Shown here: positions 12,644 through 33,985 of the stretch, one piece after another
Numbering within the stretch: position 1 is the stretch's first letter
How the letters are laid out: every line of letters starts with the position of its first letter
Assembly (NCBI GenBank): GCA_964405655.1
Contig: CAYOOO010000008.1
Location: forward strand, 1-52,879
Direction: 5' to 3'
Length of the DNA stretch: 52,879 nt
From: an uncultured Gammaproteobacteria bacterium
Lineage (GTDB): Bacteria; Patescibacteriota; Microgenomatia; Daviesbacterales; UBA10151
Program-made: the position numbers and the translations under genes
Notes under the pieces: generated by a model
Seen by the model: only the letters and a program-made list of their open reading frames with translations
Databases searched by the model: none
Told to the model about the DNA's origin: nothing

Positions 12644-13042
12644 TTACCTCTTTGGAGATTGTTTTTTAGCTCGGGCTTTGTGAGCCAAACCATATTTTCT
12701 TCTCTCTTTAACTCTTGCGTCTCTGGTCAAAAGCCCAGCAGGTTTTAATAGTACACGGAAGTTTTCCTTATCAATACCAGCTAAAGCTCTAGCAATCCCA
12801 TGAACTGTAGCATCAAGCTGAGAAGCAATTCCTCCTCCTAAAACTTTAACTGTTCCAGTATATTTACCTAAAGTTTTTGTCAGCTCAAAAGGTTTTTGAT
12901 ATTCTTTTTGGAAAATAGGACCTTTAAAATATTCTGAGATTGGTTTGCCGTTAACTGTTAATTGTCCTTGTCCCTCAAACAGCCTAACTCTGGCAATAGC
13001 TTCTTTCCTTCTACCAACTGCGCCATGATAACTGCTATTCAT
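12644..13042 (-). CDS. rpsI: 30S ribosomal protein S9
   Basis: GRRKEAIARV...LTRDARVKERRKYGL...QSPKR. Confidence 0.98.
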   Translation of the reverse strand: MNSSYHGAVGRRKEAIARVRLFEGQGQLTVNGKPISEYFKGPIFQKEYQKPFELTKTLGKYTGTVKVLGGGIASQLDATVHGIARALAGIDKENFRVLLKPAGLLTRDARVKERRKYGLAHKARAKKQSPKR

Positions 13043-13944: not shown

Positions 13945-14851
13945 CTAGACTCAGCCCCCTCTCTGCAAGCTTTTCAGATATCAAGTTTAAGGATTTTGCT
14001 CCCAGATTCTTAGCTTTAAGTAAAGTTGAAGGAGCAATATTTATAAGCTTACCAATTGTGTCTATATCGATAGCCTTTAGAGCATTAGTAATTCTAACTG
14101 GTAGATCTAACTCTTCAACTGAAGATTTCATCAAATCATCTGATAAGAAGGAGGGTGTTTGTGTCTCTTCTATCTCTTCTTCCTCAACTGGTTCATAAAC
14201 TTGTTTAAAGTAGTTGGTCAAAATCTCAGCCGCCTTCATAACAGCCTCATAAGGAGTGATTGTTCCATCAGTTGTTACCTCAAGAGTCAACTTATCAAAA
14301 TCAGTTCTTCTACCAACACGGGTTTGATCAACAGTGTAGTTTACTGAAATGACTGGAGTATAGATTGCATCAACCGGAATTAAACCAATCTCTGCGCTTT
14401 TGCGCTCATCTGCTCCAACATAACCCACACCAGTCTCAGCATTCATATCCATTGATAACTTAGCTTTTGGATCAGTCAAAGTAGCAATATGTTGATCTGG
14501 GTTAACGATCTCGCCTAAGCCTCCGGTATCAATATCTCCGGCTTTTACCTCACCTTTACCTGTTTTAGAAAGACTTAGATGAATTGGTTTATCGCCATAG
14601 ATTTTGATTCTAATTTTCTTTAAGTTTAGAATAATTTCAATAACATCCTCAACTGTGCCAGAGATTGTCGAGAATTGATGAGAAACACCAGAAATCTTAA
14701 CTGAAGTAATAGCAGCACCAGTTAGTGAAGTCAGCATACATCGGCGCAAACTATTACCCAATGTGTGACCATAACCTTGTTCCAAAGGCTCAATTACTAT
14801 TTTGGCCAAATTTCCTTTTTCTTCTTCTGTTTTAACTTTAAATCTAAGCAT
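13934..14851 (-). CDS. rpoA: RNA polymerase alpha subunit
   Basis: EPLEQGYGHTLGNSLRR, DFDKLTLEV and alpha-CTD LPVRITNAL. Confidence 0.98.
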   Translation of the reverse strand: MLRFKVKTEEEKGNLAKIVIEPLEQGYGHTLGNSLRRCMLTSLTGAAITSVKISGVSHQFSTISGTVEDVIEIILNLKKIRIKIYGDKPIHLSLSKTGKGEVKAGDIDTGGLGEIVNPDQHIATLTDPKAKLSMDMNAETGVGYVGADERKSAEIGLIPVDAIYTPVISVNYTVDQTRVGRRTDFDKLTLEVTTDGTITPYEAVMKAAEILTNYFKQVYEPVEEEEIEETQTPSFLSDDLMKSSVEELDLPVRITNALKAIDIDTIGKLINIAPSTLLKAKNLGAKSLNLISEKLAERGLSLGET

Positions 14852-14929
14852 ACCGGAGCGACTGCATTATGCCTTGATCCAGTCGCTAGATCGCTTGCAA
14901 ATTGCGAAGCAATTTGACAAGGGCATCAT
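14844..14929 (-). other. Hairpin-rich rpsD-rpoA spacer with two coupled mini-ORFs
   Basis: MMPLSNCFAICKRSSDWIKA* (14929-14867) joined by TAATG to MQSLRYA* (14867-14844). Hairpins TTG(T)CAAATTGC-TTCG-CAATTTGCAA and AGCGACTG-N15-CAGTCGCT. Confidence 0.4.
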
Positions 14930-14936
14930 TATAAAA

Positions 14937-15539
14937 TTACCTGCTGTAGAACTCAACTATTAACTGCTCTTCAACTGCTTGTTCCATTTCCTCCCTATTT
15001 GGAACTCTTAAAACCTTGCCTACTGTGGCTTTCCTGTCAAGCCATTCCGGCAAGGTTTGATTTTCATCCAAACTCTTTTTAACCTGTGTATTATCTACGA
15101 ATTTGGGATCAATTGCAACTATTGAGTTTGCTTTAACCCTAAATGACGCAACATTAACCTTCTTACCATCAACCGTGACATGCCTATGACTAACAAGCTG
15201 TCTGGCTGCTGGCCGAGATTTGGCAAAACCTAACCTGTAAACTACATTATCTAATCTCATCTCCAAAAGTTCAAGCAATCTTTGACCTGTTGCTCCTTTG
15301 GTTTTGGCAGCTTCTTCAAAGGTATTTCTAAACTGTTTCTCTGATAATCCAAACATCCTCTTAGTCTTCTGTTTCTCTCTTAGTTGAAGACCATATTCTG
15401 AGGTTCTGGGTCTAATTTTAGTACCTCTCATTCCAGGTGGAACAGCTCCTTTTCTCTCTAGTGCTTTTACATCCTTAGGAAAAAGGGCAACGCCCTCTCT
15501 TCTGGATAATCTTCTTTTTGGTCCAGTATACCTGCCCAT
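14937..15539 (-). CDS. rpsD: 30S ribosomal protein S4
   Basis: SEYGLQLREKQK and LEMRLDNVVYRLGFA. Confidence 0.98.
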   Translation of the reverse strand: MGRYTGPKRRLSRREGVALFPKDVKALERKGAVPPGMRGTKIRPRTSEYGLQLREKQKTKRMFGLSEKQFRNTFEEAAKTKGATGQRLLELLEMRLDNVVYRLGFAKSRPAARQLVSHRHVTVDGKKVNVASFRVKANSIVAIDPKFVDNTQVKKSLDENQTLPEWLDRKATVGKVLRVPNREEMEQAVEEQLIVEFYSR

Positions 15540-15931
15540 TAAACTCTTCTCCTTTTCTTGGCTCGAGGTCCGTTGTGAGGAATAGGGGTGACATCAGCAA
15601 TCATGGTGATATTCATACCAGCATTCCTTAATGCCCTAATTGAGGCATCCCTACCAGGGCCTGGACCTTTGATAAAAACCTCAACATTTTGGACCCCTAC
15701 TTCTTTACCTATTTTGGCAACTTTTTCAACTGCACTGATGGCTGCAAAAGGGGTGGCTTTTCTGGCTCCCTTAAAACCAGCATTACCTGAAGAACTCCAA
15801 GCTAAAGTTTGACCGTTTTGGTCAGTTAAGCTGACCAAAGTATTATTAAATGTAGCTGTCACATAAAGCCGCGCAGATGTGACATTTTTTGGAGTAGTAG
15901 TTTTTTTCTTAACTATTGTTTTTTTAGCCAT
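15539..15931 (-). CDS. rpsK: 30S ribosomal protein S11
   Basis: ATFNNT, GFKGARKATPFAA and DVTPIPHNG. Confidence 0.98.
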   Translation of the reverse strand: MAKKTIVKKKTTTPKNVTSARLYVTATFNNTLVSLTDQNGQTLAWSSSGNAGFKGARKATPFAAISAVEKVAKIGKEVGVQNVEVFIKGPGPGRDASIRALRNAGMNITMIADVTPIPHNGPRAKKRRRV

Positions 15932-15936
15932 AATCT

Positions 15937-16347
15937 TTATTTAGGTGGAGGTGTAGTAGTACCTCCTGTTTTAGTCACAACTTCCTTCCTAATTGTTCCA
16001 ACTGTTTTTCTCTTACCTTTTCTAGTTCGAGCATTTGAGCGGGTTCTTTGACCTCTAACAGGTAAACCTCTTCTGTGTCTTAGTCCTCGATAGGTATTGA
16101 TATCTTCAAGTCTTCTGATGTTTTGCTGAACCTCTCTTCTTAAGTCACCCTCTATTACCATACCCTCAACTGCTTTTTGCAATCTATTTACCTCATCCTC
16201 GCTTAAATCTTTAACCCTCTTGGCAGGGTCAACCTTGGCTTTTCCAAGGATTTCTACAACATTTGATCTACCTATGCCATAGATATAAGTCAAACTAATA
16301 TCTATTCTTTTTTCATTTGGTAAATCTACACCTGCAATTCTAGCCAT
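15937..16347 (-). CDS. rpsM: 30S ribosomal protein S13
   Basis: [10 protein letters not shown] and [18 protein letters not shown]. Confidence 0.98.
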
Positions 16348-16354
16348 TTTTATA

Positions 16355-16471
16355 TTATCCCTGACGTTGTTTATGCTTAGGGTCGCGTGGACATATCACA
16401 AACAAAACGCCTTCGCGCCTAACAAACTTACAAAATTTACATCTTAATTTAACTGAAGCCTGTACTTTCAT
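16355..16471 (-). CDS. rpmJ: 50S ribosomal protein L36 (zinc type)
   Basis: Below the ORF-track cutoff. Translated by hand: [38 protein letters not shown]. Confidence 0.97.
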
Positions 16472-16480
16472 AAATTAATT

Positions 16481-16500
16481 GATAACTGTTAACAGTTATC
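16481..16500. repeat. 20-bp perfect loopless palindrome over the infA stop codon
   Basis: GATAACTGTT|AACAGTTATC. Confidence 0.9.
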
Positions 16501-16747
16501 TCAACCTAAATGTTATTCTGCCTTTATCCAGATCATATTTTGGACTCATCTCAACCTCAACTCTATCTCCTGCCATCAGCCTAATATAATGCTTTCGCAT
16601 TTTACCTGAAATGTGACATAAAATCACTCTACCGATCAGTTCTGGAACCTCATCTGAACGTTCAATCTCTACCCTAAAAAGGGTATTAGGCAGTACCTCT
16701 ATAACTTTTCCCGATACTTTAATTAGATCTGGAACCATTTTTGACAA
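16496..16747 (-). CDS. infA: Translation initiation factor IF-1
   Basis: [14 protein letters not shown]...[31 protein letters not shown]. Confidence 0.96.
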
Positions 16748-16793
16748 CCTTCAAATTTTATCAGACTTAGCCTCAAAAAACAACCCATAGCAT

Positions 16794-17570
16794 TCATACT
16801 TTTCTCCAATCAGTTATAACCTCAGCTTTATCTTTTCCTACTATCACACTCATCTCAAATAATCCTCCTAAACTACCATCTTTGGTAGTATATGTCCAAC
16901 CATCATCAGATAAGTACACATCAGCATTTTTAGCTGCATAAATTACCTCAATTGCCAAAGTCATTCCCTCCTCGAGTATTAGTCCAACTCCTCTTTGCCC
17001 ATAGCCTGGGATATCCGGTTTCTCATGGAGTGCTTTACCTACTCCATGGCCAATCAGAGTTTTTGAGATGCTATAACCTGCTTTCTCGACTACTGTCTGG
17101 ATAGCATTTGAGATATCCCCAACCGTATTACCCGCAACAGCCTGATTAATTCCAGTCCATAGTGCCTTCTCCCCAACCTTTAAAAATCTAGTTTTCTCCT
17201 TTAGTTGCTCTTTGTCTTTTTCCTGTCCAACTATAATACTCCAGGCTGTATCTGTATGCCAACCCTCAAACAGAGCTCCGACATCTATACTCAAAAGATC
17301 CCCATCCTTAAGCTTGATATCCCTGGGTATTCCATGAACCAGTTCATCGTTAACTGTCAAACAAGTTGCCCATTTGTAGCCTGGTGCACTCAAGAATGAT
17401 AGCTTGGCTCCATTTTTTTTAATCTCAGAGGCTGCAACATCTTCAATCTCAAGCAAACTAACACCCGATTTTGCAGACTTTAGAGCTTTTTTGAGGGCTT
17501 TAGCGCTTATTTGGCCGCTTAGTCTCATCAGTTTAAGCTCTTTTTGACTGCGAGGTTTGACTAAGCTCAT
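16794..17570 (-). CDS. map: Methionine aminopeptidase type I
   Basis: VHGIP, SIDVG, HTDTA, GHGVG and LAIE metal-binding motifs. Confidence 0.96.
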   Translation of the reverse strand: MSLVKPRSQKELKLMRLSGQISAKALKKALKSAKSGVSLLEIEDVAASEIKKNGAKLSFLSAPGYKWATCLTVNDELVHGIPRDIKLKDGDLLSIDVGALFEGWHTDTAWSIIVGQEKDKEQLKEKTRFLKVGEKALWTGINQAVAGNTVGDISNAIQTVVEKAGYSISKTLIGHGVGKALHEKPDIPGYGQRGVGLILEEGMTLAIEVIYAAKNADVYLSDDGWTYTTKDGSLGGLFEMSVIVGKDKAEVITDWRKV

Positions 17571-18091
17571 AGACTCTTTTTTATTTGACGATGAACCTCC
17601 TCAATGCTTTGCTCACCATCTATCTCGATTAATTTATTAATTGAGATATAGTAATTTAAAAGCATAACAATTCTTCTTTTTTGGGCTTTAAATCTAGTTG
17701 CAATAATCCTATCCTTATCATCTAATCTGCCTCGGGAAAGCATCCTTTTAGTTGCCTTCTCTTCTGAAACATTTAAATGAATAACATAGTCAAACTTTGG
17801 ATCAAATAAATGAATTTGAGCCAGAGATCTGGGATATCCATCAATCACAAAACCATACTGACAATCTGGTTGCTTCAGTCTGTCTTTAATAATTTGAGCT
17901 ACTAGCTCATCCTCGACTAAAAAACCTTTTTCAACCTTTTCCTTTATTTTTTTTCCTAAAGGACCATCAGCTGCGATCATCTCTCTTAATATTTGACCAA
18001 AGTTTATAAAACAAATTTTTAAATCTTCGGCTATTTTTTTTGCTTGTGTGGTTTTTCCGCTTCCTGGTAACCCCAAAATAAGGATCTTCAT
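17567..18091 (-). CDS. adk: Adenylate kinase, short-LID type
   Basis: GLPGSGKTTQA, DGYPRS and RGRLDD; located between secY and map. Confidence 0.93.
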   Translation of the reverse strand: MKILILGLPGSGKTTQAKKIAEDLKICFINFGQILREMIAADGPLGKKIKEKVEKGFLVEDELVAQIIKDRLKQPDCQYGFVIDGYPRSLAQIHLFDPKFDYVIHLNVSEEKATKRMLSRGRLDDKDRIIATRFKAQKRRIVMLLNYYISINKLIEIDGEQSIEEVHRQIKKSL

Positions 18092-18168
18092 TGGAAATTT
18101 TCCTTATCTTTTTTAAAATTTCCTCCGAAGAACCTCGTCTTCGCCTTCGGCGAACGTAAAATCTTCAC
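18088..18168 (-). other. 26-aa mini-ORF bridging secY and adk, repeating the adk start (MKIL)
   Basis: GTG overlaps the secY TGA (GTGA) and its TGA overlaps the adk ATG (ATGA). Peptide [26 protein letters not shown]; contains TTCGCC-GAA-GGCGAA. Confidence 0.55.
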
Positions 18169-19460
18169 CGTCTTAGAAATCCTTCGTAATTTCTCTCTAT
18201 TAACTTACTTTCAAACTGTTTGGCAGTATCTAAGACAACAGACACAACAATTAAGATTGATGTTCCACCAATTACCAAGGTTGTAATGTTAGTAAACTGA
18301 GAAATTATTGAAGGTAAAATTGCTATTAATCCTAAAAAGATTGCTCCTGCTAGAGTAATTCTTAAAAGAATATAGTTTAAGTAACTGGCTGTAGCGCTAC
18401 CAGGTCTAATCCCCGGGATAAAACCTCCGTATTTTTTTATCTCATCAGCGATCTTAGTTGGATTAAAAATAACAGCAGTATAAAAATAAGTAAAACCAAT
18501 TACTAGTAAAAAGTAGCTTAGGTTATAAATTATAGAGTTGGGATTAAAATTAGTTGCTAACCAGTAGCCGATATTTCTTAGAGGAACAGAACTCATCTGA
18601 GATAAAAACTGGCCTGCAAACGAAGGCAGTAGCACCAACGAGACAGCAAAAATTATTGGAATTACTCCTGCTTGGTTAACTCTTAAGGGAAGATAGGTAT
18701 GGTTGCCTCCTCCAACTGCTTGTCTGTTGCCAATAAACCTTCGGGCATATTGAACCAGAATCTGTCTCCTTCCTTCATTGACAAAAACAATTCCAGCTGT
18801 CACCATTATCCCAACAGCGATAAAGATTAGTAAATTAATTAGCTGCTGCTGATCAACGATTGAGGCAGTTTGGAAAAGAACAACTGGCGCTCTGGCAACA
18901 ATTCCAACAAAGATCAAAACCGAAATCCCGTTACCGATTCCGTACTCACTCATCAGTTCCCCTAACCACATGATAAAGACTGTTCCAGCAGTCATTCCGA
19001 CTATAATTGCCAGAATCTCAAGCGGTGTGCCTGCCTCTATTAATCCCTGTCTTTTCAAAAGGGTGAACATCCCAATTCCCTGTAAGACAGCCAGCGGGAC
19101 AGTTAAGTATCTAGTATATTGATTAATCTTCATTCTACCTTGTTCCCCCTCTTTTGAAAGTTCCTCAAGTTTAGGGAAAACCATGGTTAAAAGCTGGATA
19201 ATAATCGAGGCGTTAATATAAGGATTTAAACCTAAAGCAATGACTGAAAAATTAGCTAAAGTTCCTCCAGAAAATATATCCAAAAGCCCAAGCAGTTGAT
19301 TACTTTGGAATAAGTTTCTTAAGCCTTCTAAATCCACACCGCCTATTGGTATATGAGCAGCTATTCTGAAAATTATCAGTATTAGGATAGTAATAAGTAT
19401 CTTTCTTCTAAGCTCAGGGATACTAAAGGCATCAATGAAGGGTTTGATTATGCTATACAA
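18165..19460 (-). CDS. secY: Preprotein translocase SecY
   Basis: [31 protein letters not shown] and GGTSILIVV. Confidence 0.98.
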
Positions 19461-19902
19461 CTACTTTACCTCCTGCTTTCTCTATCTCATCTTTGACCTT
19501 TTTGGAAACAGGCAGATGGACATTCAAAGAAACCTTAAGATCTTCATCAAACAATACTTTAACTCCCTTCACCTTGACAGCTGAGGGTTTGACTAAATTT
19601 AGCTTGACTAACATCTCTAAATCAACTTCACTTTTGGCTTTTAGCTTATTTAATTGTGAGGTTTTGATGATGACTGATTTGGCAGACCTGACTGAATTGC
19701 CTCCTCTTCTACTCCATCCTCTTCGATAAGGAAGTTTCCTGTAAAGAGGTAGTGACCCACCAATAAACCCTGCTGGAATTTTACCTCTGGCTTTTTGACC
19801 TTTGGTACCTCTTGAGCTAGTTTTTCCTTTTCCAGAACCAATTCCCCGACCAACCCTTTTCTTTTCCTTAAGTTTTAATCTAGGTAAGTTACTTAGTTTC
19901 AT
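19453..19902 (-). CDS. rplO: 50S ribosomal protein L15
   Basis: [24 protein letters not shown] and IEKAGG. Confidence 0.97.
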
Positions 19903-20495
19903 TCTTTTTTATCCTCTTTTGATTTGACTTTTTTACCCGTCTCTACTTTTAGATTACCCTTTCCATTAATATTTTTTAGATTTTTCAGAGCTTCTAAAGC
20001 TGCATAAACATTTGAAGCCTGATTGCTAGTACCTAAAACCTTTGAGACAATATCTCTAATTCCGGCTGCTTCTACTACTACTCTGACAGCCCCCCCAGCA
20101 ATTACTCCTGTCCCAGCTGGTGCAGGCTTAAGCAAAACCTTGGCAGCACCTAGCTTTAGCAGTACTTCATGAGGGATAGTCCGATTATCCTTTAGCGGAA
20201 CTGTAATTAAATGCTTTTTTCCGTAGCTGCTGGCTTTTCTAACAGCTGATTGAACATCCGCAGCCTTGCCCAGTCCAACTCCGACTTTTCCCTGTCGGTC
20301 CCCAACTACCACCAAAACAGAAAGGGAACGCTTATCTCCCCCTTTTGTCTTTTTTGACACCCGATTAACCTGGACAACCTTTTCATAAAATTGATCAGTA
20401 TTGTCAGAAGAAAATCTAGGTCGATTAAATCCACCTCTTTGGCCGCCTTGTCCAAATCCTCTATTTTGATTTTGTTTTTTAGTTTCTTCGTTCAT
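19899..20495 (-). CDS. rpsE: 30S ribosomal protein S5
   Basis: VNRVSKKTKGG and PAPAGTGVIAGG; directly abuts rplO with no rpmD. Confidence 0.98.
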   Translation of the reverse strand: MNEETKKQNQNRGFGQGGQRGGFNRPRFSSDNTDQFYEKVVQVNRVSKKTKGGDKRSLSVLVVVGDRQGKVGVGLGKAADVQSAVRKASSYGKKHLITVPLKDNRTIPHEVLLKLGAAKVLLKPAPAGTGVIAGGAVRVVVEAAGIRDIVSKVLGTSNQASNVYAALEALKNLKNINGKGNLKVETGKKVKSKEDKKE

Positions 20496-20497
20496 AT

Positions 20498-20833
20498 TTA
20501 AAATTCCAAGCCCCCTTTTCTTGCTCCCTCTGCCAGTGCAATCAATCTTCCTTGATAAGGGTAGCCCCCTCGATCAAAAACTACTTTCTTGATTTTTCCT
20601 TTGACTGCCTTTTTAGCCAAATTTTCTCCAACTTGTGAAGCCTTAACTTTCTTACTACCTTCATTAATTTTTAAGTCAGATTCTGCTACTAAGGTTTTGC
20701 CCTGACTATCATCAATGATTTGAGCATAGATATGCTGACCAGAGCGAAAAACTGACAGCCTTGGTCTATCTTTTGTACCAAAAATCTTTTTTCTAATTTT
20801 TTTATGCCTATTTTGTCTTGAAACTTTATACAT
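20498..20833 (-). CDS. rplR: 50S ribosomal protein L18
   Basis: [18 protein letters not shown] and VVFDRGG. Confidence 0.98.
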
Positions 20834-20886
20834 AATCTTACGTTTTTAAAACTCCATTCAAAAATGCTGCCAAAACATCATAATCC

Positions 20887-21444
20887 TTACTTGGCTCCTC
20901 CAACTACTGCTTTGCCAGCTTTACCAGCTTTTCTTCTAACGTATTCTCCTTCATAACGGATGCCTTTACCTTTATAAACCTCTGGTGGTTTGACAGCTCT
21001 AATATTAGCAGCAACTTGTCCAACTAGATGTTTATCAATTCCACTGACAGTAATTTTAGTGTTATCACTAACTGTAAAGTTAATTCCCTCGGGAGCCTTA
21101 AAATTAACTGGGTGTGAATAACCAACGTTTAGAGTTAGACTGTCTCCCCCGCCTGAAGCTCTATAACCAACTCCAACCATTTCTAATTTTTTATCCCAGC
21201 CACTGCTTACTCCTAAAACCATATTGTTTAAAAGTGCTCGGGTTAAACCGTGAACCGACCTGCTTAACCGATCTTCTTTCTTTCGAGAAACAACCAGCTG
21301 GTTGTCTTTAACTTCGGCGCGAACGAGAGGGTTTAAATTAAGTTCCAAACTACCCTTTGGACCTTTAGCTAAAACCTTACTCCCTTCTATCAGGACCTCA
21401 ACGCTACTTGGTATATTAATAGGGTTATTACCAACTCTACTCAT
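20887..21444 (-). CDS. rplF: 50S ribosomal protein L6
   Basis: MSRVG..PI, GVGYRA and PPEVYKGKGIRY. Confidence 0.98.
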   Translation of the reverse strand: MSRVGNNPINIPSSVEVLIEGSKVLAKGPKGSLELNLNPLVRAEVKDNQLVVSRKKEDRLSRSVHGLTRALLNNMVLGVSSGWDKKLEMVGVGYRASGGGDSLTLNVGYSHPVNFKAPEGINFTVSDNTKITVSGIDKHLVGQVAANIRAVKPPEVYKGKGIRYEGEYVRRKAGKAGKAVVGGAK

Positions 21445-21447
21445 TTT

Positions 21448-21501
21448 TTACCAAATGTAAGCGAAGCTTGCCTTTGGTGACTCGAGTCACCAAACGTAGG
21501 C
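21448..21501 (-). repeat. Imperfect direct repeat of the rpsH 3' end around a 22-bp perfect palindrome
   Basis: GCCTACGTTTGGTGA and GCTTACATTTGGTAA, 39 nt apart (12/15 identical). Palindrome TTTGGTGACTC|GAGTCACCAAA at 21473-21494. Confidence 0.75.
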
Positions 21502-21906
21502 TAAAACTTCTCCACCTACACCCTCCTTTCTAGCTTCTTTATCAGTCATGACGCCTTTAGGGGTGGAGATAATCGCTACTCCTAAACCATTTAAAACTCT
21601 AGGCAGAGCTTTTTGACCTCTGTAAATACGCAAACCCGGTTTGGAAATACGCCTGACTTCAGTAATTGCTGGCTTTCTTTTGGATGAGGAACTAAATTCA
21701 TTCTCATACTTTAAGACCACCTTAATCTTTCTAAAAGGAGAGTTTTCATCTTTGAACTCCTCTAATTTAGATATATAGCTTTCTCTCTCTAAAACTTTAC
21801 AGATACTAAAGACCAGGTTTGAGTATGGTAACCACACCTCTGTCTTTAAGGCCTTATATCCATTTTTGATTCTTATTAATGCATCTGCAACAGTATCTGT
21901 AACCAT
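21487..21906 (-). CDS. rpsH: 30S ribosomal protein S8
   Basis: DTVADALIRIKN, RISKPGLRIY, STPKGVMT and GGEVLAYVW. Confidence 0.98.
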   Translation of the reverse strand: MVTDTVADALIRIKNGYKALKTEVWLPYSNLVFSICKVLERESYISKLEEFKDENSPFRKIKVVLKYENEFSSSSKRKPAITEVRRISKPGLRIYRGQKALPRVLNGLGVAIISTPKGVMTDKEARKEGVGGEVLAYVW

Positions 21907-21910
21907 ATTT

Positions 21911-22090
21911 TTACCAACTCGATTTCTTTACACCTGGTAAGTAACCCTTGTATACCAGTTCTCTAAAACAAATCCGACATATCCCAAAGCGGCGTAAATA
22001 ACCGCGAGACCTACCGCACCTACTACAACGGTTTACTCTTTGAACTTCGTATTTAACTTTCTTTTTTACAATATTTGAAACTTTGGCCAT
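21911..22090 (-). CDS. rpsN: 30S ribosomal protein S14 type Z
   Basis: Not in the track. 59 aa by hand: MAKVSN...RCSRCGR...[25 protein letters not shown]. Confidence 0.97.
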
Positions 22091-22105
22091 TTTTATTTCT
22101 CCTTA

Positions 22106-22645
22106 TTACTTTGCAAAAGGCATCCCTAAAAGCTCTAGTAACCTTTTGCCTTGTTCAACATTTTTTGCTGTTGTATTGATAGTGATCTGTAAACCTCTAG
22201 CTTTGTCAATGTTTTTATAGTCAGTCTCTGGGAATATTAACTGTTCCCGCAGTCCTAAGTTAAAGTTTCCCTGAGGATCAAAAGATTTAGAAGAAACTCC
22301 TCTAAAATCTCTAACCTTAGGTAGGACTATATTGATCAATTTTTCCAAAAAAGCGTACATCTTCTGACCACGCAAGGTTACCATTAAGCCAATTGGTGCA
22401 TTCTTAGTCAACTTAAAACTCGAGATTGACTTTTTAGCTTTGGTGACAATTGGCTTTTGACCAGCTATCAAACTGAGATTATCCCGAGCCTTATCTAAAA
22501 CTCCTTCATTATCTTTAGCGTCTGCAATACCTATATTTATTACTACTTTAGATAACCTTGGTGCTGCCAGGCCATTTTTAATATTGAACTCTTCCATTAA
22601 TTTAGATTTCACTTCTTGATAATATTTGTCTTTTAAAACACTCAT
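22106..22645 (-). CDS. rplE: 50S ribosomal protein L5
   Basis: PRLSKVVINIG, LPKVRDFRG and GNFNLG. Confidence 0.98.
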   Translation of the reverse strand: MSVLKDKYYQEVKSKLMEEFNIKNGLAAPRLSKVVINIGIADAKDNEGVLDKARDNLSLIAGQKPIVTKAKKSISSFKLTKNAPIGLMVTLRGQKMYAFLEKLINIVLPKVRDFRGVSSKSFDPQGNFNLGLREQLIFPETDYKNIDKARGLQITINTTAKNVEQGKRLLELLGMPFAK

Positions 22646-22657
22646 AACTGATTTCTC

Positions 22658-22972
22658 CTATATAGCTTTCTTGCATTTTCTGCAAATTCTGACTTTGCTA
22701 TCTCCTTTCACTTCATATCCTACTCGAGTTGGTTTTTTACAGTTAGGACAAATCAAAGAAACATTAGAGATATCAACTGGTTTGACAATATCAATAATTC
22801 CACCTTCAATATCCCGATATTTCCTAACATGTCTTTTGGCGATATTAACCCCAGCTACAATCAGTTGTCCTTTTTTACCCAGAACTTTTTCAACTTGGCC
22901 AGTTTTACCTCTGTCTTTACCGAGTAAAACTAAAACATTGTCACCTTTTTTTATTCTGGTCATTTCTACCAT
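22658..22972 (-). CDS. rplX: 50S ribosomal protein L24
   Basis: IKKGD.V.V..GKDRGK.G and CPNCKKPTRVG. Confidence 0.98.
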   Translation of the reverse strand: MVEMTRIKKGDNVLVLLGKDRGKTGQVEKVLGKKGQLIVAGVNIAKRHVRKYRDIEGGIIDIVKPVDISNVSLICPNCKKPTRVGYEVKGDSKVRICRKCKKAI

Positions 22973-23061
22973 CCTCCTATTGTTAACTTAGTCACGTTAC
23001 CGAAATGGCCACTACACGGCTCTATCGTGCTATTTTTCTTAATTTTAAATTCACAATTCAT
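22966..23061 (-). other. 31-aa mini-ORF in the rplN-rplX spacer with an L24-like start
   Basis: GGAG SD upstream. MNCEFKIKKNSTIEPCSGHFGNVTKLTIGGW* overlaps the rplX ATG. Its 5' part lies in a degenerate heptamer tandem repeat (23041-23075). Confidence 0.4.
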
Positions 23062-23076
23062 AATTCTAGATTCTCC

Positions 23077-23445
23077 TCACCATACCTCTTGCGCTAAAGA
23101 AACTATTTTGCTAAAACCTGCATCTCTGACTTCCCTGGCAATAGGTCCGAAAATTCTGGTTGCCCGCAAATTATCATCTTTATCCACAATTACCGCTGCA
23201 TTATCATCAAACTTAATGTAAGAACCATCTTCCCTTCGATATTCTTTTTTGGCCCTGACTAAAACTGCTCTAACTATCTCACCATTTTTGACTTGTCCGT
23301 TCGGATCAGCCCCTTTGACAACAGAGATCATTACTTCACCCAGTCTGCCAAAACGTTTGCCTGAGCCTCCCAAGGGTTGGATTACTTGGAGCCTTTTAGC
23401 CCCCGAATTATCAGCTACGTTTAATATTGATCTGTGTTGTACCAT
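23077..23445 (-). CDS. rplN: 50S ribosomal protein L14
   Basis: [15 protein letters not shown] and [10 protein letters not shown]. Confidence 0.98.
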
Positions 23446-23451
23446 CTTATT

Positions 23452-23509
23452 AAGACAGATTTGGACATAGATTCGATTGATCTAGCAGTTAAACTGCCAA
23501 ATCGTCTGC
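23452..23509 (-). repeat. Palindromic element copy C (rpsQ-rplN spacer)
   Basis: AGACGATTTGG-CAGTTTAACTG...CCAAATCTGTCT; shares both arms with copy B. Confidence 0.7.
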
Positions 23510-23510
23510 T

Positions 23511-23963
23511 CTATGCCTTTTTCTGTTCTGCTTTTCCTTTCTTTTCTTTAATTGAAGTCCTCTTAGCTGATTGTTTTACCCGATTTTCTTTTTTGTTGGC
23601 TTTTTTAGTTTCTTTTTCTTCTTTAGTTTTTACCTCAGCTTCTAGAGCTGCTTCCTCTTTCTTCTCTTCTTCTTCAGGTAAAACTTCCTCAATTGCCTCT
23701 TTTGCCTCTTCTTTAAGTTGCTCAGTTCCTAAAGCCACAATATCTTTACCTAAGACTTTTTTAACCTGATAGTGTTTTCTTTTAGAAATTGGTCTAACTT
23801 TTTCAATCACCACAATGTCTCCTAGACTCACGCCAATTGGATCATCAGCTAAATATTTTTTAGTCCAAGCATAAGACTTTTTATAAACTGGGTGAGTCTT
23901 CCGTTGCTCAACCAGCACTGAAACTGTCTTTTGCATCTTTGTTGATACCACCCTACCAATCAT
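23511..23963 (-). CDS. rpsQ: 30S ribosomal protein S17 with a long charged C-terminal tail
   Basis: GRVVSTKMQKTV and GDIVVIEKVRPISKRK. Confidence 0.97.
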   Translation of the reverse strand: MIGRVVSTKMQKTVSVLVEQRKTHPVYKKSYAWTKKYLADDPIGVSLGDIVVIEKVRPISKRKHYQVKKVLGKDIVALGTEQLKEEAKEAIEEVLPEEEEKKEEAALEAEVKTKEEKETKKANKKENRVKQSAKRTSIKEKKGKAEQKKA

Positions 23964-23965
23964 GT

Positions 23966-24046
23966 TTATTTGGACAAATTTGGACGTGACCTTTTGTTTT
24001 CAATTGGCTTTTTACTGCCGAATTGTCCATCACGACCTTTCGTCAA
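23966..24046 (-). repeat. Palindromic element copy B, in frame in the L29 tail
   Basis: AAAGGTCGTGA-TGGACAATTCGG-CAGT...CCAAATTTGTCCA-AATAA. Confidence 0.7.
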
Positions 24047-24304
24047 CCTCCCTTCTTCTTCTTTTATTTCTTCTGTTGTCTGTTGACTCTTAACTGTTAA
24101 CTCTTCTAACAGCTGTTTTTGCCTTAAAACTGTTAAAACTTGAGCTAAGTCTTTTCTCTTTTTAGAGACTACTTTAATATCTTTTACCTTACTCATGTTT
24201 TTATCCATGATCAGATTATTAATCTCTGTTTTTAAACCTTTAGCTTTAGCTATTAAATCAACAATACTCAAAGTTTTTACTTGTGTTAAATCTTTACTAC
24301 GCAT
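23966..24304 (-). CDS. rpmC: 50S ribosomal protein L29 with a C-terminal extension
   Basis: Sits between rplP and rpsQ; [14 protein letters not shown] motif. The likely start is ATG 24304, overlapping the rplP stop. Confidence 0.88.
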
Positions 24305-24722
24305 GTTCAAACTCCTTAGTGACAAATCTTGTTTTTAAAGGTAGTTTATGGGATGCCAGTCTCATTGCCTCTCGGGCTATATCTTCAGCCACTGCACCCA
24401 TTTCAAAAAGAATATTGCCTGGCCTAACTACTGCCACGTACCCTTCTACATCCCCTTTTCCAGAACCCATTCTAGATTCAGCTGGGTGCTTGGTAATCGG
24501 TTTATCAGGAAAAATCCTAATCCAAATACGTCCACCACGCTGGGTGTAACGAGTCATTGCACGTCTTGCTGCCTCTATTTGACGTGAGGAAATCCAACCT
24601 TCTTCTTCGGTCTTGAGAGCAAAATTGCCAAAGGCGATCCGGTTATTGCGAGTAGCAATACCTTTTCTGCGACCTCGGAATGCTTTTCGATATTTAACTC
24701 GTTTTGGAACTAAAAGTGCCAT
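24297..24722 (-). CDS. rplP: 50S ribosomal protein L16
   Basis: [17 protein letters not shown] and RMGSGKG. Confidence 0.98.
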
Positions 24723-24723
24723 G

Positions 24724-25365
24724 TTAAATTTTTGCCTCCCCTTTGTTAATCCAAACCTTTACACCAACATAACCTGATTTGGTTAAAGCTGGATAAACTG
24801 CAAAATCAATATCAGCTCTTAAAGTATGTAAAGGTATTGAACCGAAAAACTTTGATTCTCTTCTTGCTATCTCTGCTCCACCTATTCGTCCTGATAAAAC
24901 AACTTTGACTCCTTTTGCCCCAGCTCGCATCACTCGATCAATAGTCTGGTTCATTACCCTAGCAGCAGGCATTCTTCTAACAAGTTGGTCAGCAATGCTT
25001 TGAGCAACCAAATAAGCTGACAAATCAGGTATTTTCATATCCATAGGAACTATTTCTAAGGCATTTTCATCCTTAAGATTGAGCTCCCTCATCAAAAATT
25101 TCTTCAACTCTAATAATCCTGTTCCACCTCGGCCTATTAAAATACCAGGTCTTGAGACAAAAATAATGATTTTTATCTTGTTAATTGCTCTTTCTATCTC
25201 TATCTTGGAAATACCAGCTGTCTTGAGTCTCTTCATTAAAATTTCTCTGATTTTCATATCCTCTTTGAGAAACTGCTGATATTTTTTGCTACTGGCAAAC
25301 CACCTGGATTCCCAGGGCGATACTATTCCTAACCTAAAACCAATTGGATTTATCTTTTGGCCCAT
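24724..25365 (-). CDS. rpsC: 30S ribosomal protein S3
   Basis: [13 protein letters not shown] start (track start at 25464 is over-extended); [11 protein letters not shown] and [11 protein letters not shown]. Confidence 0.97.
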
Positions 25366-25367
25366 CT

Positions 25368-25453
25368 TTTTACTTGGACGATCCTGTCCTACCTCCTTTT
25401 GCTGATTCAGTCGCGTTACTGGATCGTCCATTACGATCTTTGGTCTCGCTGAC
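25368..25453 (-). repeat. Palindromic element copy A, in frame in the L22 tail
   Basis: AAAGATCGTAA-TGGACGATCC...GGATCGTCCA-AGTAA, a 10-bp perfect stem. Confidence 0.7.
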
Positions 25454-25825
25454 CTTATTTTCATTTATGTTCTGTTTAGCTTTTGATTCTTTCTTATTTA
25501 TCATTTCGTCTGTTAGGACGATTTTGATATGACTCCACCTTCTTCGATAAGGCCTACCTCTGCCCCGACCAGCTGTACCAACCCGGTATCTTTTTAGCTT
25601 CATTCCCTCATTAATCTCCAGCTTTTTAAAGAATAAATTAGCTGATCCTTTAGCATTGGCCATGGCTGTTTTAATTGCTTTGGCCAAAGGTAGTGAAGCT
25701 GCTTTGTTGGTAAACTGCAAAACTTCTAATGCTTGATCTGGATTCATCTCTCGAATCATCTCAGCTACTAACCTCAGTTTACGAGGTGAGGTGGTCACGT
25801 TTTTTTGTATAGTAATATATTCCAT
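25370..25825 (-). CDS. rplV: 50S ribosomal protein L22 with a C-terminal extension
   Basis: SPRKLRLVA.MIR and RGRPYRRRWSHIKIVL. Confidence 0.97.
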   Translation of the reverse strand: MEYITIQKNVTTSPRKLRLVAEMIREMNPDQALEVLQFTNKAASLPLAKAIKTAMANAKGSANLFFKKLEINEGMKLKRYRVGTAGRGRGRPYRRRWSHIKIVLTDEMINKKESKAKQNINENKVSETKDRNGRSSNATESAKGGRTGSSK

Positions 25826-25840
25826 ACTTTAAATTTTCTC

Positions 25841-26125
25841 TTATGTTTTTGATGTACTCTTTTCAGTCATCTTTCCGTGAGATCTAAAAGTTCTGGTTGG
25901 AGCAAACTCTCCAAGTCTGTGTCCTACCATAGCCTCAACCACATAAACTGTTATAAAGTTCTTGCCTTGATGAACTAAAAAAGTGTGACCAACAAACTCC
26001 GGTGGAATTTGGCAGTTCCTAGCCCAAGTTTTAATCGGTGATTTCTGTCCAGACTCCTTCTGGACTTGCACTTTTTTCATTAATTTCTGATCTATATATG
26101 GTCCTTTGTATGATGATCTACTCAT
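25841..26125 (-). CDS. rpsS: 30S ribosomal protein S19
   Basis: IKTWAR, VHQGK and [13 protein letters not shown]. Confidence 0.98.
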
Positions 26126-26137
26126 AATTTATATTTA

Positions 26138-26253
26138 TTAATGATCTAAAAGATCTTCATAGAGGGCTTGTCCCTCATACAAGCTTCTTCCCATTATTTA
26201 GTAATCCTTTCTGAAGCGAGTACAGGCTTCGCCTGATATGTACTTCTTGACAT
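26138..26253 (-). other. Two coupled mini-ORFs, each starting with an S19-like N-terminus
   Basis: MSRSTYQAKPVLASERITK* (26253-26194) joined by TAATG to MGRSLYEGQALYEDLLDH* (26194-26138). rpsS starts MSRSSYKG. Confidence 0.6.
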
Positions 26254-26277
26254 AATTGTTTTTCTATTAACTATTGG

Positions 26278-29117: not shown

Positions 29118-29127
29118 TTTTTTGACA

Positions 29128-29222
29128 AGAAAAAGAGTGATCACGCCAGCTGGCGGATCACTCAGTAATTGTGCCTTACTTCAATTGTCGTATCAGGCAA
29201 AGCCTGACGCACAATTTACTGA
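29128..29222 (-). promoter_or_regulatory. Structured rplC leader: long hairpin followed by a terminator-like hairpin
   Basis: TCAGTAAATTGTGC...GCACAATTACTGA, then GAGTGATC-CGCCAGCTGGCG-T-GATCACTC-TTTTTCTT, ending about 10 nt before the ATG. Confidence 0.6.
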
Positions 29223-29277
29223 TAGAAATTCAAGTTGTAAAAAATTAACCTGATTTAAACATCAGTTTCTTAGGGGA

Positions 29278-29307
29278 ATTTTAACACAGGCTCAGCCACA
29301 TTTGCAA
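29278..29307 (-). promoter_or_regulatory. Internal promoter between rpsJ and rplC
   Basis: TTGCAA-18 bp-TAAAAT with an extended TGn motif. Confidence 0.55.
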
Positions 29308-29324
29308 GCTGCTGCAAAGCTGCA

Positions 29325-29447
29325 GTCCTGAACGAAGTGATGGAATTAATAAAATTTTCTAACCCAACTTTCAGAGATTTATCAGGAGATCTGGCACTCG
29401 CCAGAGATCCTTCACTATGCTCAGGATGATCCGCCATTGGCGGATCA
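29325..29447. repeat. REP-like inverted pair with flanking GC hairpins
   Basis: TCCTGAACGAAGTGA (29326-29340, plus) and TCATCCTGAGCATAGTGAAGGATCTC (29429-29404, minus). Hairpins GATCTGGC-ACTC-GCCAGAGATC and TGATCCGCC-ATT-GGCGGATCA. Confidence 0.65.
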
Positions 29448-29478
29448 CACGGCTACCATCAAAACGTTTCGAGACAAA

Positions 29479-29787
29479 CTACATTTTAACCTCTATGTCT
29501 ACTCCCGCTGGTAATTCAAGATGCATCAGTGAATCGATCGTCTTATCAGTAGGCTCAACAATATCAACCACTCTTTTGTGTACCTTAATTTCAAATGTTT
29601 CTTGGGAATTTTTATCTGTAAAGGGGGAACGGGGAACAGTAATTCTTGAACGTTTAGTAGGCAGGGGAATTGGACCAACAATCTTGGCACCTGTACGTAG
29701 GGCAGTATCAAGAAGCTGCTCACAGGTAGCATCTAAAACTCGATGATCGTATGATTTTAGTCTGACTCTTATTCTGCCTTTAGCCAT
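29479..29787 (-). CDS. rpsJ: 30S ribosomal protein S10
   Basis: IRVRLKSYDHR.LD, GPIPLPT and LELPAGVDIEVK. Confidence 0.98.
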   Translation of the reverse strand: MAKGRIRVRLKSYDHRVLDATCEQLLDTALRTGAKIVGPIPLPTKRSRITVPRSPFTDKNSQETFEIKVHKRVVDIVEPTDKTIDSLMHLELPAGVDIEVKM

Positions 29788-29830: not shown

Positions 29831-29850
29831 AAAAAAGGGCCTTGCGGCCC
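29831..29850 (-). terminator. Intrinsic terminator after tuf
   Basis: GGGCC-GCAA-GGCCC-TTTTTT. Confidence 0.85.
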
Positions 29851-31046: not shown

Positions 31047-31051
31047 AGTTT

Positions 31052-31130
31052 AAAAAAGTTTTAGCTACCGAATTGTCCATCCCAAGCTAAAACTGTTCTA
31101 TATTTTAAATTTAAATCAAGTAAAAAGCAA
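31052..31130 (-). promoter_or_regulatory. tuf promoter and leader hairpin with a U-tract
   Basis: TTGCTT-17-TAAAAT (31130-31102), then GTTTTAGCT-N18-AGCTAAAAC-TTTTTT, 5 nt before the ATG. Confidence 0.6.
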
Positions 31131-31261
31131 GCATTGCTTTTTAAGGCATTAAAATCCAGCTTTTCCAAAGCTGGTTGAATGAAAATATACAATAACTGCC
31201 TTAGAATTGCAATAGCTAAAATCTTTATTCTTTTTTATCACAATTTATGTTCTGGAAAAGT

Positions 31262-31561
31262 TTATTCAGGTTGATCAAGCAAATCCCTCTCCCATCTAAC
31301 AATGCCTCCTGTAATATCGTTAAGATTAATTCGCCTAGCAATCAGAGGACGTGGATCTTCAATGAGATTAACCCCATTAGTGGCAGCTAACATCACTTTA
31401 TTTGAAGTTGCTACTCTGAAAATAATCTCCCTAACTTCGCTACTAACAACCACAGTTCTACCAGTACTAATCCACTCAAAGGGATCATCTCTTGTACCAC
31501 TATGAGGCAACAAAACTCGTTTACTCTCAGGTTGTTCAGATTCTATTTTATAAATAGCCAC
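31262..31561 (-). CDS. Hypothetical protein between fusA and tuf
   Basis: 99-aa ORF with a GTG start, AAGGAG upstream and its own promoter TTGATT-17-TATAAT (31618-31590). Confidence 0.65.
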   Translation of the reverse strand: MAIYKIESEQPESKRVLLPHSGTRDDPFEWISTGRTVVVSSEVREIIFRVATSNKVMLAATNGVNLIEDPRPLIARRINLNDITGGIVRWERDLLDQPE

Positions 31562-31620
31562 CTTAAAAGCTCCTTAAAACTAATGAGTAATTATAGACTA
31601 TGGGATAGATATAATCAAGA

Positions 31621-33766: not shown

Positions 33767-33985
33767 TTAATTATTTTCTAGTTTGCTAATGATTTTTTGT
33801 ATCTCTGAGATTCTCACTCTTAAAGTTTCAGCTTCCTCTAAGGCCATCTTATAAGCTGCATTTTCTGATAAATCTCCCATTGCTGCTGCTTCGCCTTTTT
33901 GCTGCATAACAACCTGAAGCTGTGTCTCAAGCTCACCAAGTTTCTTATTCCAAACAGCAATTTTTTCTTTCTTTATATTATCCAT
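33767..33985 (-). CDS. Gre-factor N-terminal coiled-coil only (72 aa)
   Basis: [14 protein letters not shown] matches the Gre tip motif GDLxENaeY; the C-terminal domain is absent. Confidence 0.8.

Follow-up and report, generated by a model that had tools for sequence, protein, structure and literature searches.

Conserved, probable leader mini-ORFs that echo the rpsS start in the S10-spc-alpha operon of a Daviesbacteria genome

The DNA analysed here, referred to throughout as the window, is the 52,879-nucleotide (nt) contig CAYOOO010000008.1 (assembly GCA_964405655.1). Its source is a groundwater bacterium of the candidate phyla radiation (CPR), Candidatus Daviesbacteria (Microgenomates), and its SecY is 73–80% identical to SecY proteins named Candidatus Daviesbacteria. 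The window carries the S10-spc-alpha ribosomal protein cluster on its minus strand, from rpsJ (29479–29787) to rpsI (12644–13042). Junctions in this operon are mostly overlapping or 1–15 nt long, with seven long exceptions: rplB–rpsS (152 nt), rpsQ–rplN (65 nt), rplN–rplX (104–113 nt), rpsH–rplF (42 nt), rplF–rplR (53 nt), secY–adk (73 nt) and rpsD–rpoA (85 nt). The long spacers are identical, with zero differences, in contigs from four independent public runs; since these independent assemblies agree, the spacers are no assembly artefact. The original prediction gave five of the spacers, those associated with rpsS, adk, rplX, rpsH and rpoA, a single architecture, in which a short copy of the terminus of the neighbouring gene, termed here an echo, is combined with a hairpin. 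This was an overstatement: the pattern is seen at rpsS, adk and rpsH, and the rplX and rpoA matches are at null level. The clearest echoes are two mini open reading frames (mini-ORFs) between rplB and rpsS.

The rplB–rpsS spacer (26126–26277; minus strand, as for all features of the operon given below) separates rplB (L2; 26278–27093), whose last codons, AAAAGGAGAAGATAA, hold a Shine-Dalgarno (SD)-like AAGGAG, from the real rpsS gene (S19; 25841–26125), which has its own ATG, the conserved N-terminus and no upstream SD-like motif. Mini-ORF 1 (echo 1; 26194–26253) begins ATG TCA AGA AGT ACA TAT CAG… and encodes MSRSTYQAKPVLASERITK, followed by a stop; mini-ORF 2 (echo 2; 26138–26194) begins ATG GGA AGA AGC TTG TAT GAG GGA… and encodes MGRSLYEGQALYEDLLDH, likewise followed by a stop. 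The TAA of mini-ORF 1 shares bases with the ATG of mini-ORF 2 (TAATG), and the stop of mini-ORF 2 lies 12 nt ahead of the rpsS ATG. Their products start MSRSTYQ… and MGRSLYEG…, compared with MSRSSYKG… in S19, each matching S19 at four of the seven residues after the initiator Met. Stem-loop 1 (26223–26235; CAGGC-GAA-GCCTG) occupies codons 7–11 of echo 1, and stem-loop 2 (26162–26176; GAGGG-ACAAG-CCCTC) lies within a 21-nt core of echo 2, TATGAGGGACAAGCCCTCTAT. An SD-like AGAAAGGAT (26204–26212) is located 9 nt upstream of the echo 2 ATG.

For comparison, the operon was annotated in ∼85 related loci, designated here by L numbers and drawn from NCBI genome assemblies, Logan contigs identified through SecY matches, and metagenome contigs. 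Mini-ORF starts were compared with the N-terminus encoded downstream over the seven post-Met residues, against pairings with other genes of the same locus. Matches at four or more of the seven residues were found three times among 486 mini-ORFs in 217 spacers, where 0.27 were expected, so that the match rate is above that of shuffled pairings in the comparison that the original prediction had proposed. Two of the three are the rpsS echoes of the window. The third is in L081, in which MEYLTIQKNV precedes L22 (MEFVSIQKNV), an independent 30-nt duplication of the L22 start. A leader in L170, described below, matches the S19 start at 6/7. Outside the CPR, the control comprised 80 operons of distant phyla, from among the matches listed by a genome-collection scan with L5; their 1925 mini-ORFs gave no match at four or more residues (0.5 expected).

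Both rpsS echoes recur at the same rplB–rpsS junction in one further genome each, giving four leader copies and two genomes per leader type; in the window, types 1 and 2 stand in tandem. The echo 1 homologue is in L165 (GCA_040960095.1; S19 89% identical to that of the window), directly before rpsS. It encodes MSRSTHEAKLLLALRKDK and stops 3 nt from the rpsS ATG, its codons being ATG AGT AGA TCA ACA CAT GAA GCA AAG CTT CTG CTC GCT TTA AGA AAG GAT AAA TAA. Identity with echo 1 is 48/66 nt, the common parts being the context from −14 to −1 and the tail CTCGCTT…AGAAAGGAT…AAATAA, and the two differ by indels of +1 and −4 nt that leave the same stop in frame. With base pairs counted by eye for both leader types, the L165 stem, GAAGC-AAA-GCTTC, has two pairs altered on both sides relative to the window, and pairing is kept. 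The SD-like AGAAAGGAT is also conserved in L165, 10 nt upstream of the real rpsS ATG; by position, the counterpart of window echo 2 in L165 is the real rpsS start. The echo 2 homologue is in L170, a Logan contig (S19 84% identical), where MSRSSYEGQALYKLLIIGKELNV, followed by a stop, is encoded by a frame that opens 2 nt past the L2 stop and closes in an ATGA shared with the rpsS start. It shares 36/45 nt with echo 2, and all 21 nt of the core TATGAGGGACAAGCCCTCTAT. A stem-loop is found at +19 from the ATG in all four copies, with two compensatory pairs in the 5-bp stem between the window and L165 and a third stem variant in the other leader type.

The leaders are thus 73–80% identical at the nucleotide level between genomes, and for the rplB and rpsS genes on either side, identity at four-fold degenerate sites between these same genomes is 0.29–0.48, that is, saturated. 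Neutral sequence would be unrecognisable at the distance between the window and L165 or L170, and the comparison argues that the rpsS leaders are selected elements and not decaying scars. Their N-termini, M-S/G-R-S-S/T/L-Y/H, are made up of the same residues as real S19 N-termini of the clade, and their serine codons come from both families (AGT and TCA) while the residue stays serine. This suggests either constraint on the peptide or that the gene has rewritten the leaders repeatedly; substitutions at third positions fit neither decisively. On these comparisons we regard the rpsS echoes as real, strong and conserved. The conservation in relatives that would be looked for in functional echoes is confined to these leaders, which are in frame in L165 and L170; no other locus contains a counterpart of the adk or rpsH echo.

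Across the clade the operon is compact. The median spacer is between −11 and +7 nt at 28 of 31 junctions (the exceptions being rpsJ–rplC, map–infA and rpsD–rpoA), and the ancestral junctions are classic −4 and −1 overlaps. Spacers of 40–400 nt are sporadic in the related loci, each in single genomes and at almost any junction; at rplB–rpsS the clade median is 2 nt, compared with 152 nt in the window. It is well supported that the long spacers are sporadic insertions into ancestrally compact junctions. Roughly one-third of relatives have a secY–adk overlap, which reads (A/G)TGA and then AA(A/G)ATTTTA, and the S8 genes of relatives end in …TGGTAA, followed by 2–6 nt before the rplF ATG.

These relatives help to interpret the echoes at adk and rpsH. 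In the window the secY–adk spacer (18092–18164) is spanned by an ORF (18088–18168) encoding MKILRSP…, whose GTG lies on the secY stop (GTGA) and whose TGA lies on the adk ATG (ATGA); the predicted GTGA, ATGA and TAATG overlaps of mini-ORFs are seen here and at rplB–rpsS. The match of MKIL to the Adk start, on which the predicted echo was based, is 3/7 residues and not significant by itself. The nucleotides are more informative, GTGAAGATTTTA at the secY stop matching the overlapping adk start of relatives (L093, L082) at 11 of 12 bases, and the first 12 nt of the ORF are therefore the ancestral overlapping adk start, still in place. The insert carries a stem-loop (18140–18154; TTCGCC-GAA-GGCGAA) and a second, 9-base-pair (bp) stem (18115–18123 paired with 18093–18101). 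In the rpsH–rplF spacer (21445–21486) the echo is of a C-terminus: GCTTACATTTGGTAA (21448–21462; AYIW and a stop) lies in frame with rpsH and downstream of the S8 end itself, GCCTACGTTTGGTGA. The match at the junction is 16/24 bases, with 0.78 such cases expected among 226 spacers, and bears out this part of the prediction. The echo keeps the ancestral rplF junction TGGTAAAAAATG, that is, TGGTAA plus AAA(A/T)ATG, as in L084; the functional S8 end is the upstream copy, and the echo is the ancestral stop junction. A perfect 22-nt palindrome, TTTGGTGACTCGAGTCACCAAA (21473–21494), pairs the last rpsH codons and stop with an inverted copy. The adk and rpsH echoes are relics like the old rpsS starts, with no sign of selection. 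Each echo thus marks an insertion close to a gene end, within the first or last few codons, that came with a second copy of these codons; with genes overlapping in the operon, only insertions of this kind would leave both genes intact.

The two remaining candidates are short matches, and neither is anchored at a gene start. The KIKK echo of rplX matches 14/24 bases, for which ∼9 cases are expected, and the MLR echo of rpoA matches 2/7 residues, the null level; both were rejected. The view that start-matching, and not the ORFs themselves, is the signal accordingly applies to rpsS, adk and rpsH and not to rplX or rpoA. The rpsD–rpoA spacer (14852–14936) has an 8-bp stem-loop with a GC-TTC-GC tip. 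A promoter-like TTGAGT-17-TATAAT (14956–14928; 10/12 matches) runs from the end of rpsD into this spacer and may be an internal rpoA promoter, which seems the simpler reading of the spacer.

The hairpins proposed as part of the architecture are likewise unevenly distributed. Fold z-scores are −2.6 for rpsH–rplF and −2.4 for secY–adk, compared with −1.5 for the rpsS spacer and 0.0 for rplN–rplX (22964–23076); rpsD–rpoA and rplF–rplR have −1.4 and −0.9. The strongest hairpin (−5.0) is in rpsQ–rplN (23446–23510), which has no echo; its outer stem is formed by the S17 stop region and an inverted copy of it, GGCATAGA with TCTATGTCC, as the rpsH stem is formed by TTTGGTGAC with GTCACCAAA. Spacers of relatives also often contain hairpins derived from tandem or inverted copies of a neighbouring gene terminus. 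In the rpsN–rpsH junction of L086 the insert after S14 opens with ATATCCCTT, the inverse of AAGGGATAT; L086 (7435–7677) also has a 38-nt in-frame copy of the S14 C-terminus, 62 nt past the real one, with five differences, all synonymous. This copy ends a 33-residue mini-ORF whose start, ATGGTAA, lies on the S14 stop. Tips of the form GC-GAA-GC or GC-TTC-GC are ∼90-fold enriched in operon spacers (5.6/kb, compared with 0.06/kb in coding sequence), in either orientation. No terminator-like site that could indicate a leader-peptide attenuator of the trpL type is present in the echo spacers of the window, and an Rfam scan of the window gave no match at the gathering score and none of relevance at E ≤ 5.

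The ORFs that start with an echo share a distinctive geometry. In all six (echo 1, echo 2 and the adk ORF of the window, and those of L165, L170 and L081) the stop lies between −13 and +12 nt from the next start. The offsets are −1 from echo 1 to echo 2, +12 from echo 2 to rpsS, −4 at both ends of the adk ORF, +2 and −4 in L170, and +3 from the leader to rpsS in L165. Shuffling gives probabilities of 0.07–0.63 per case, with a product of 6e-5, or ∼1e-3 when homologous pairs are counted once. Across the clade, chains of mini-ORFs leading from the upstream stop to the downstream start are found in 32–33 of 175–179 spacers, compared with 21.4 ± 4.0 in shuffled, 19 in reverse-complemented and 14 in reversed sequence. 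A 4-mer SD core is present in only 23 of 65 window genes, and in relatives with a compact junction the SD-like AAGGAG within the last L2 codons serves rpsS. Overlaps of 4 nt and 1 nt that couple translation are believed to set the stoichiometry of ribosomal proteins. Termination-reinitiation is nearly lost at a distance of ∼20 nt in E. coli and Haloferax (PMC10666635), which makes a bridging cistron a plausible way to keep coupling across an insert. The coupling relay offered in the original prediction has moderate support from stop positions and clade-wide chains.

Our preferred explanation, to which we give an even chance, is that local duplication and insertion split overlapping junctions and that the old starts of rpsS were kept as relay or leader cistrons. 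A compact junction would offer no neutral insertion site, and the survivors would be those insertions that also duplicated the 12–38 nt between the break and the gene end, leaving the old start or stop at the old junction while the duplicate serves the gene. This origin, by an insertion that duplicates a gene end into a compact junction, is well supported by the comparison with relatives; the inverted gene-end copies would point to local template switching or slippage and not to a mobile element. Each rpsS leader has S19-like codons 1–6, a 5-bp stem-loop over codons 7–11, and a stop that either coincides with the next start or is no more than 12 nt away from it. In the probable relay, ribosomes would load at the retained start, through the SD embedded in L2 in the case of L170 and through the AGAAAGGAT SD ahead of echo 2 in the case of the window, read across the insert and then reinitiate at the real rpsS start, which in the window has no SD. 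For the rpsS leaders such a relay or leader role is the best-supported mechanism, and we infer it, together with translation of the mini-ORFs, from geometry and from conservation in a few genomes.

Several observations weigh against this explanation. Reinitiation could not readily reach echo 1 from the L2 stop, which is 24 nt away in the window and 119 nt away in L165, distances that are too long. The window taken alone is not enriched in chains (3 of 8 spacers, 1.9 expected). Two genomes per leader type is thin sampling, and a ∼95% identical strain (run X5, low coverage) adds little, the rplN–rplX spacer alone being covered, with five substitutions, and the rpsS spacer uncovered. Substitutions between echo 1 and the L165 leader show no third-position excess, and the 21/21 identity of the echo 2 core could instead reflect recent lateral transfer. 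The structures are thermodynamically unremarkable, with z-scores of −0.7 to −1.7 for the rpsS stem-loops and −1.5 for the rpsS spacer, and the L165 minimum-free-energy fold is a different one. A nucleotide-level scan for echoes gave few clear cases, with 7.5–8.4% of spacers at p ≤ 0.05 and most long spacers echo-less, and a single tandem duplication that leaves both N- and C-terminal echoes in one spacer is not enriched (5 cases, 3.6 expected).

Some of these points would be expected if the echoes were neutral scars, that is, decaying by-products of duplication and insertion with no effect on translation, an explanation that we consider unlikely overall. The weak z-scores of the rpsS hairpins, the insignificant relay count in the window, the many echo-less spacers of the clade and the lack of homologues for the adk and rpsH echoes are in its favour, and it fits these two echoes. 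It does not account for leaders that are 73–80% identical while four-fold sites are saturated, for a frame that is open to the next start despite indels that net a multiple of three, or for covariation in stem 1. A regulatory role of the leaders is compatible with that conservation. In one form of it, a protein, for example a ribosomal protein, would bind the stem-loop at an S19-type start and repress the leader, and through coupling rpsS and later genes. The fixed +19 position in all four copies, the compensatory changes and the location at an internal junction where relatives also have hairpins could all be explained by such an operator, and autogenous ribosomal protein leaders are lineage-specific and often outside Rfam (Fu et al. 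2013, PMC3616713; PMC7247131). Three differing stems and loops (GAA, AAA and ACAAG), however, speak against recognition of a specific sequence, the stems have a mere 5 bp, no rRNA mimicry was identified, and no Rfam family matches even at E ≤ 5; we judge an operator of this type to be distinctly unlikely.

The two explanations that invoke more unusual machinery have less to recommend them. Hairpin cassettes that move laterally, entering rpsS behind codon 6 as well as the ends of other genes and copying the target on each occasion, could explain why the 21-nt core of echo 2 is the same in the window and L170 while flanking codons differ, why the two echoes differ in the natural S19 start allele that their first five codons resemble, and why GCGAAG/CTTCGC tips are so enriched in the spacers of this genome. 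We nevertheless consider cassettes improbable. Neither core recurs elsewhere in the 52.9-kb window, in the Daviesbacteria-like loci (L081–L172) or in viral contigs, the only occurrences being at rplB–rpsS of the window, L165 and L170; neither terminal inverted repeats nor shared termini were seen, nor was a transposase gene noticed in the neighbourhood of the spacers; the duplicated stretches (12, ∼16, ∼22–25, 30 and 38 nt) are not of fixed length; and the changes in the echo 1 hairpin compensate each other, which is what vertical descent would lead one to expect. The earlier suggestion of insertion scars thus survives as regards origin, with compact relatives and echoes at the ancestral junctions, and not as regards a mobile element. 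Ribosomal bypassing or RNA excision between matched codons, with the echo supplying the N-terminus, is hardly credible. The likeness to S19 does stop at Tyr6 (TAT), just before the stem-loop, and the real Tyr6 is TAC or TAT in the window and L170, but every real gene keeps its own ATG and its full conserved N-terminus. The codons that follow are CAG, GAG and GAA, with no stop after the take-off codon; the take-off and landing codons are TAT–TAC in the window and TAT–TAT in L170, but CAT (His)–TAT in L165; the nascent chain would be just six residues; no intron-like or known RNA family was detected; and the joined form is present in none of the runs.

Comparison with known systems places the preferred explanation, duplication with retained old starts, among familiar processes. 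Integrative elements restore the end of their target gene, duplicating the attachment site, and an intact gene end on one side with a partial copy on the other is seen here too. The inserts are, however, only 27–85 nt long, without an integrase gene or a site-specific core, and the copies differ at many positions. S8 acts at the rplE start within the E. coli spc operon. The leaders resemble such autogenous elements in being conserved at the start of an internal ribosomal protein gene in the S10-spc cluster, and differ in their 5-bp stem, in belonging to no Rfam family and in containing a frame derived from the gene that they would regulate. The 20 new ribosomal protein leaders of Eckert & Weinberg 2020 (PMC7247131) do not include one for rpsS, the nearest being the L2 leader upstream of rplB in Alphaproteobacteria. 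Termination-reinitiation at overlapping pairs with ATGA or TGATG is known (Huber et al. 2019, PMC6728339; 2023, PMC10666635), and the mini-ORFs are similarly joined by GTGA, ATGA, TAATG or gaps of 3–12 nt. In this case an extra cistron, made from the downstream gene's own start, bridges an insert of 60–150 nt, and the gaps of 24 nt (window) and 119 nt (L165) exceed the tolerance of the known process. Template switching produces quasi-palindromic hairpin mutations (Löytynoja & Goldman 2017, PMC5453318; Mönttinen & Löytynoja 2022, PMC8794818) that are like the inverted gene-end copies found beside their source, with perfect stems, at rpsH (21473–21494) and in rpsN–rpsH of L086; here there is in addition direct duplication of the terminus with net insertion, and we infer the mechanism from this anatomy. 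In phage T4 gene 60, as in the leaders, a stem-loop directly follows a codon that recurs downstream; in the leaders there is no take-off stop, the segment further downstream carries a start of its own and a complete N-terminus, and the L165 codons are unmatched.

Other features of the cluster and its relatives were noted. In many Daviesbacteria an ORF of 79–139 residues lies between rplB and rpsS, where the window has its leaders (L081 3184–3534; L084 2970–3341; L168 698–1036; L169 110–403; L171 2388–2807; L172 125–490; L173 846–1235). A Pfam search of these ORFs gave no match; weak common motifs, Y.LGP(S/T)L and (T/S)(V/I)W.G, suggest one small-protein family within the S10 operon. Spacers of relatives are often AT-rich hairpins made of stop-rich tandem heptamers (TAACTAA, TTAATCG, CTAGCTA), in many cases seeded from the very end or start of the neighbouring gene (L090 3199–3275; L087 7455–7513; L161 1085–1157; L165 8572–8628 and 10791–10854). 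Nine of the 16 GCGAAG/CTTCGC copies in the window fall in the ∼8% of it that is intergenic, in either orientation with respect to transcription; tips are at 209, 629, 8069, 8081, 14904, 18139, 21461 and 26227. The rpsJ–rplC spacer (29118–29478) is 361 nt long, and almost all relatives likewise have a long spacer here (median 190 nt); a 55-residue ORF within it (29270–29437; …HPEHSEGS…) has no Pfam match and may be a conserved leader or repeat element. A terminator-like hairpin, GGGCC-GCAA-GGCCC followed by TTTTTT (29837–29850, minus strand), lies between tuf and rpsJ. The fusA–tuf region (31047–31620) comprises a 99-residue ORF (31262–31561) without a Pfam match and a 215-nt spacer, and spans ∼1 kb in L165. 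Directly upstream of fusA, a 72-residue ORF (33767–33985) matches the GreA/GreB N-terminal domain alone (E = 1.5e-10). The gene rpmD (L30) is missing between rpsE (19899–20495) and rplO (19453–19902), L22, S17, L23 and L29 have long charged C-terminal tails, and a scan of the window found no tRNA gene. In a mosaic test based on the nearest neighbour of each gene, the relatives are all ∼70% identical to the window, too uniform to inform on recombination.

We conclude that the rpsS leaders represent a new variant of translational coupling, leader cistrons and template-switch hairpins and not a categorically new system. More tentatively, and with doubt outweighing belief, duplication-born relay cistrons may be a general way for coupled overlapping genes to tolerate insertions at their junctions. 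The old start would be selected as a loading site and constrained or rewritten like the real N-terminus, the stem-loop at +19 would position or gate ribosomes, and the rplB–rpsS leaders of Daviesbacteria would supply the first example with conservation, along with a new class of ribosomal protein leader, one that includes a copy of the start of the gene it regulates. The locus shows a route by which a very compact operon can gain spacers, in which the end of a gene is copied and, at least in the case of rpsS, the former start survives as a very short cistron. For annotation, it cautions against always treating short ORFs that resemble the end of a neighbouring gene as errors or pseudogenes. 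Should the relay prove real, it would yield a rule, open to test, on how insertions leave coupling intact, and CPR bacteria would have a type of leader not listed before.

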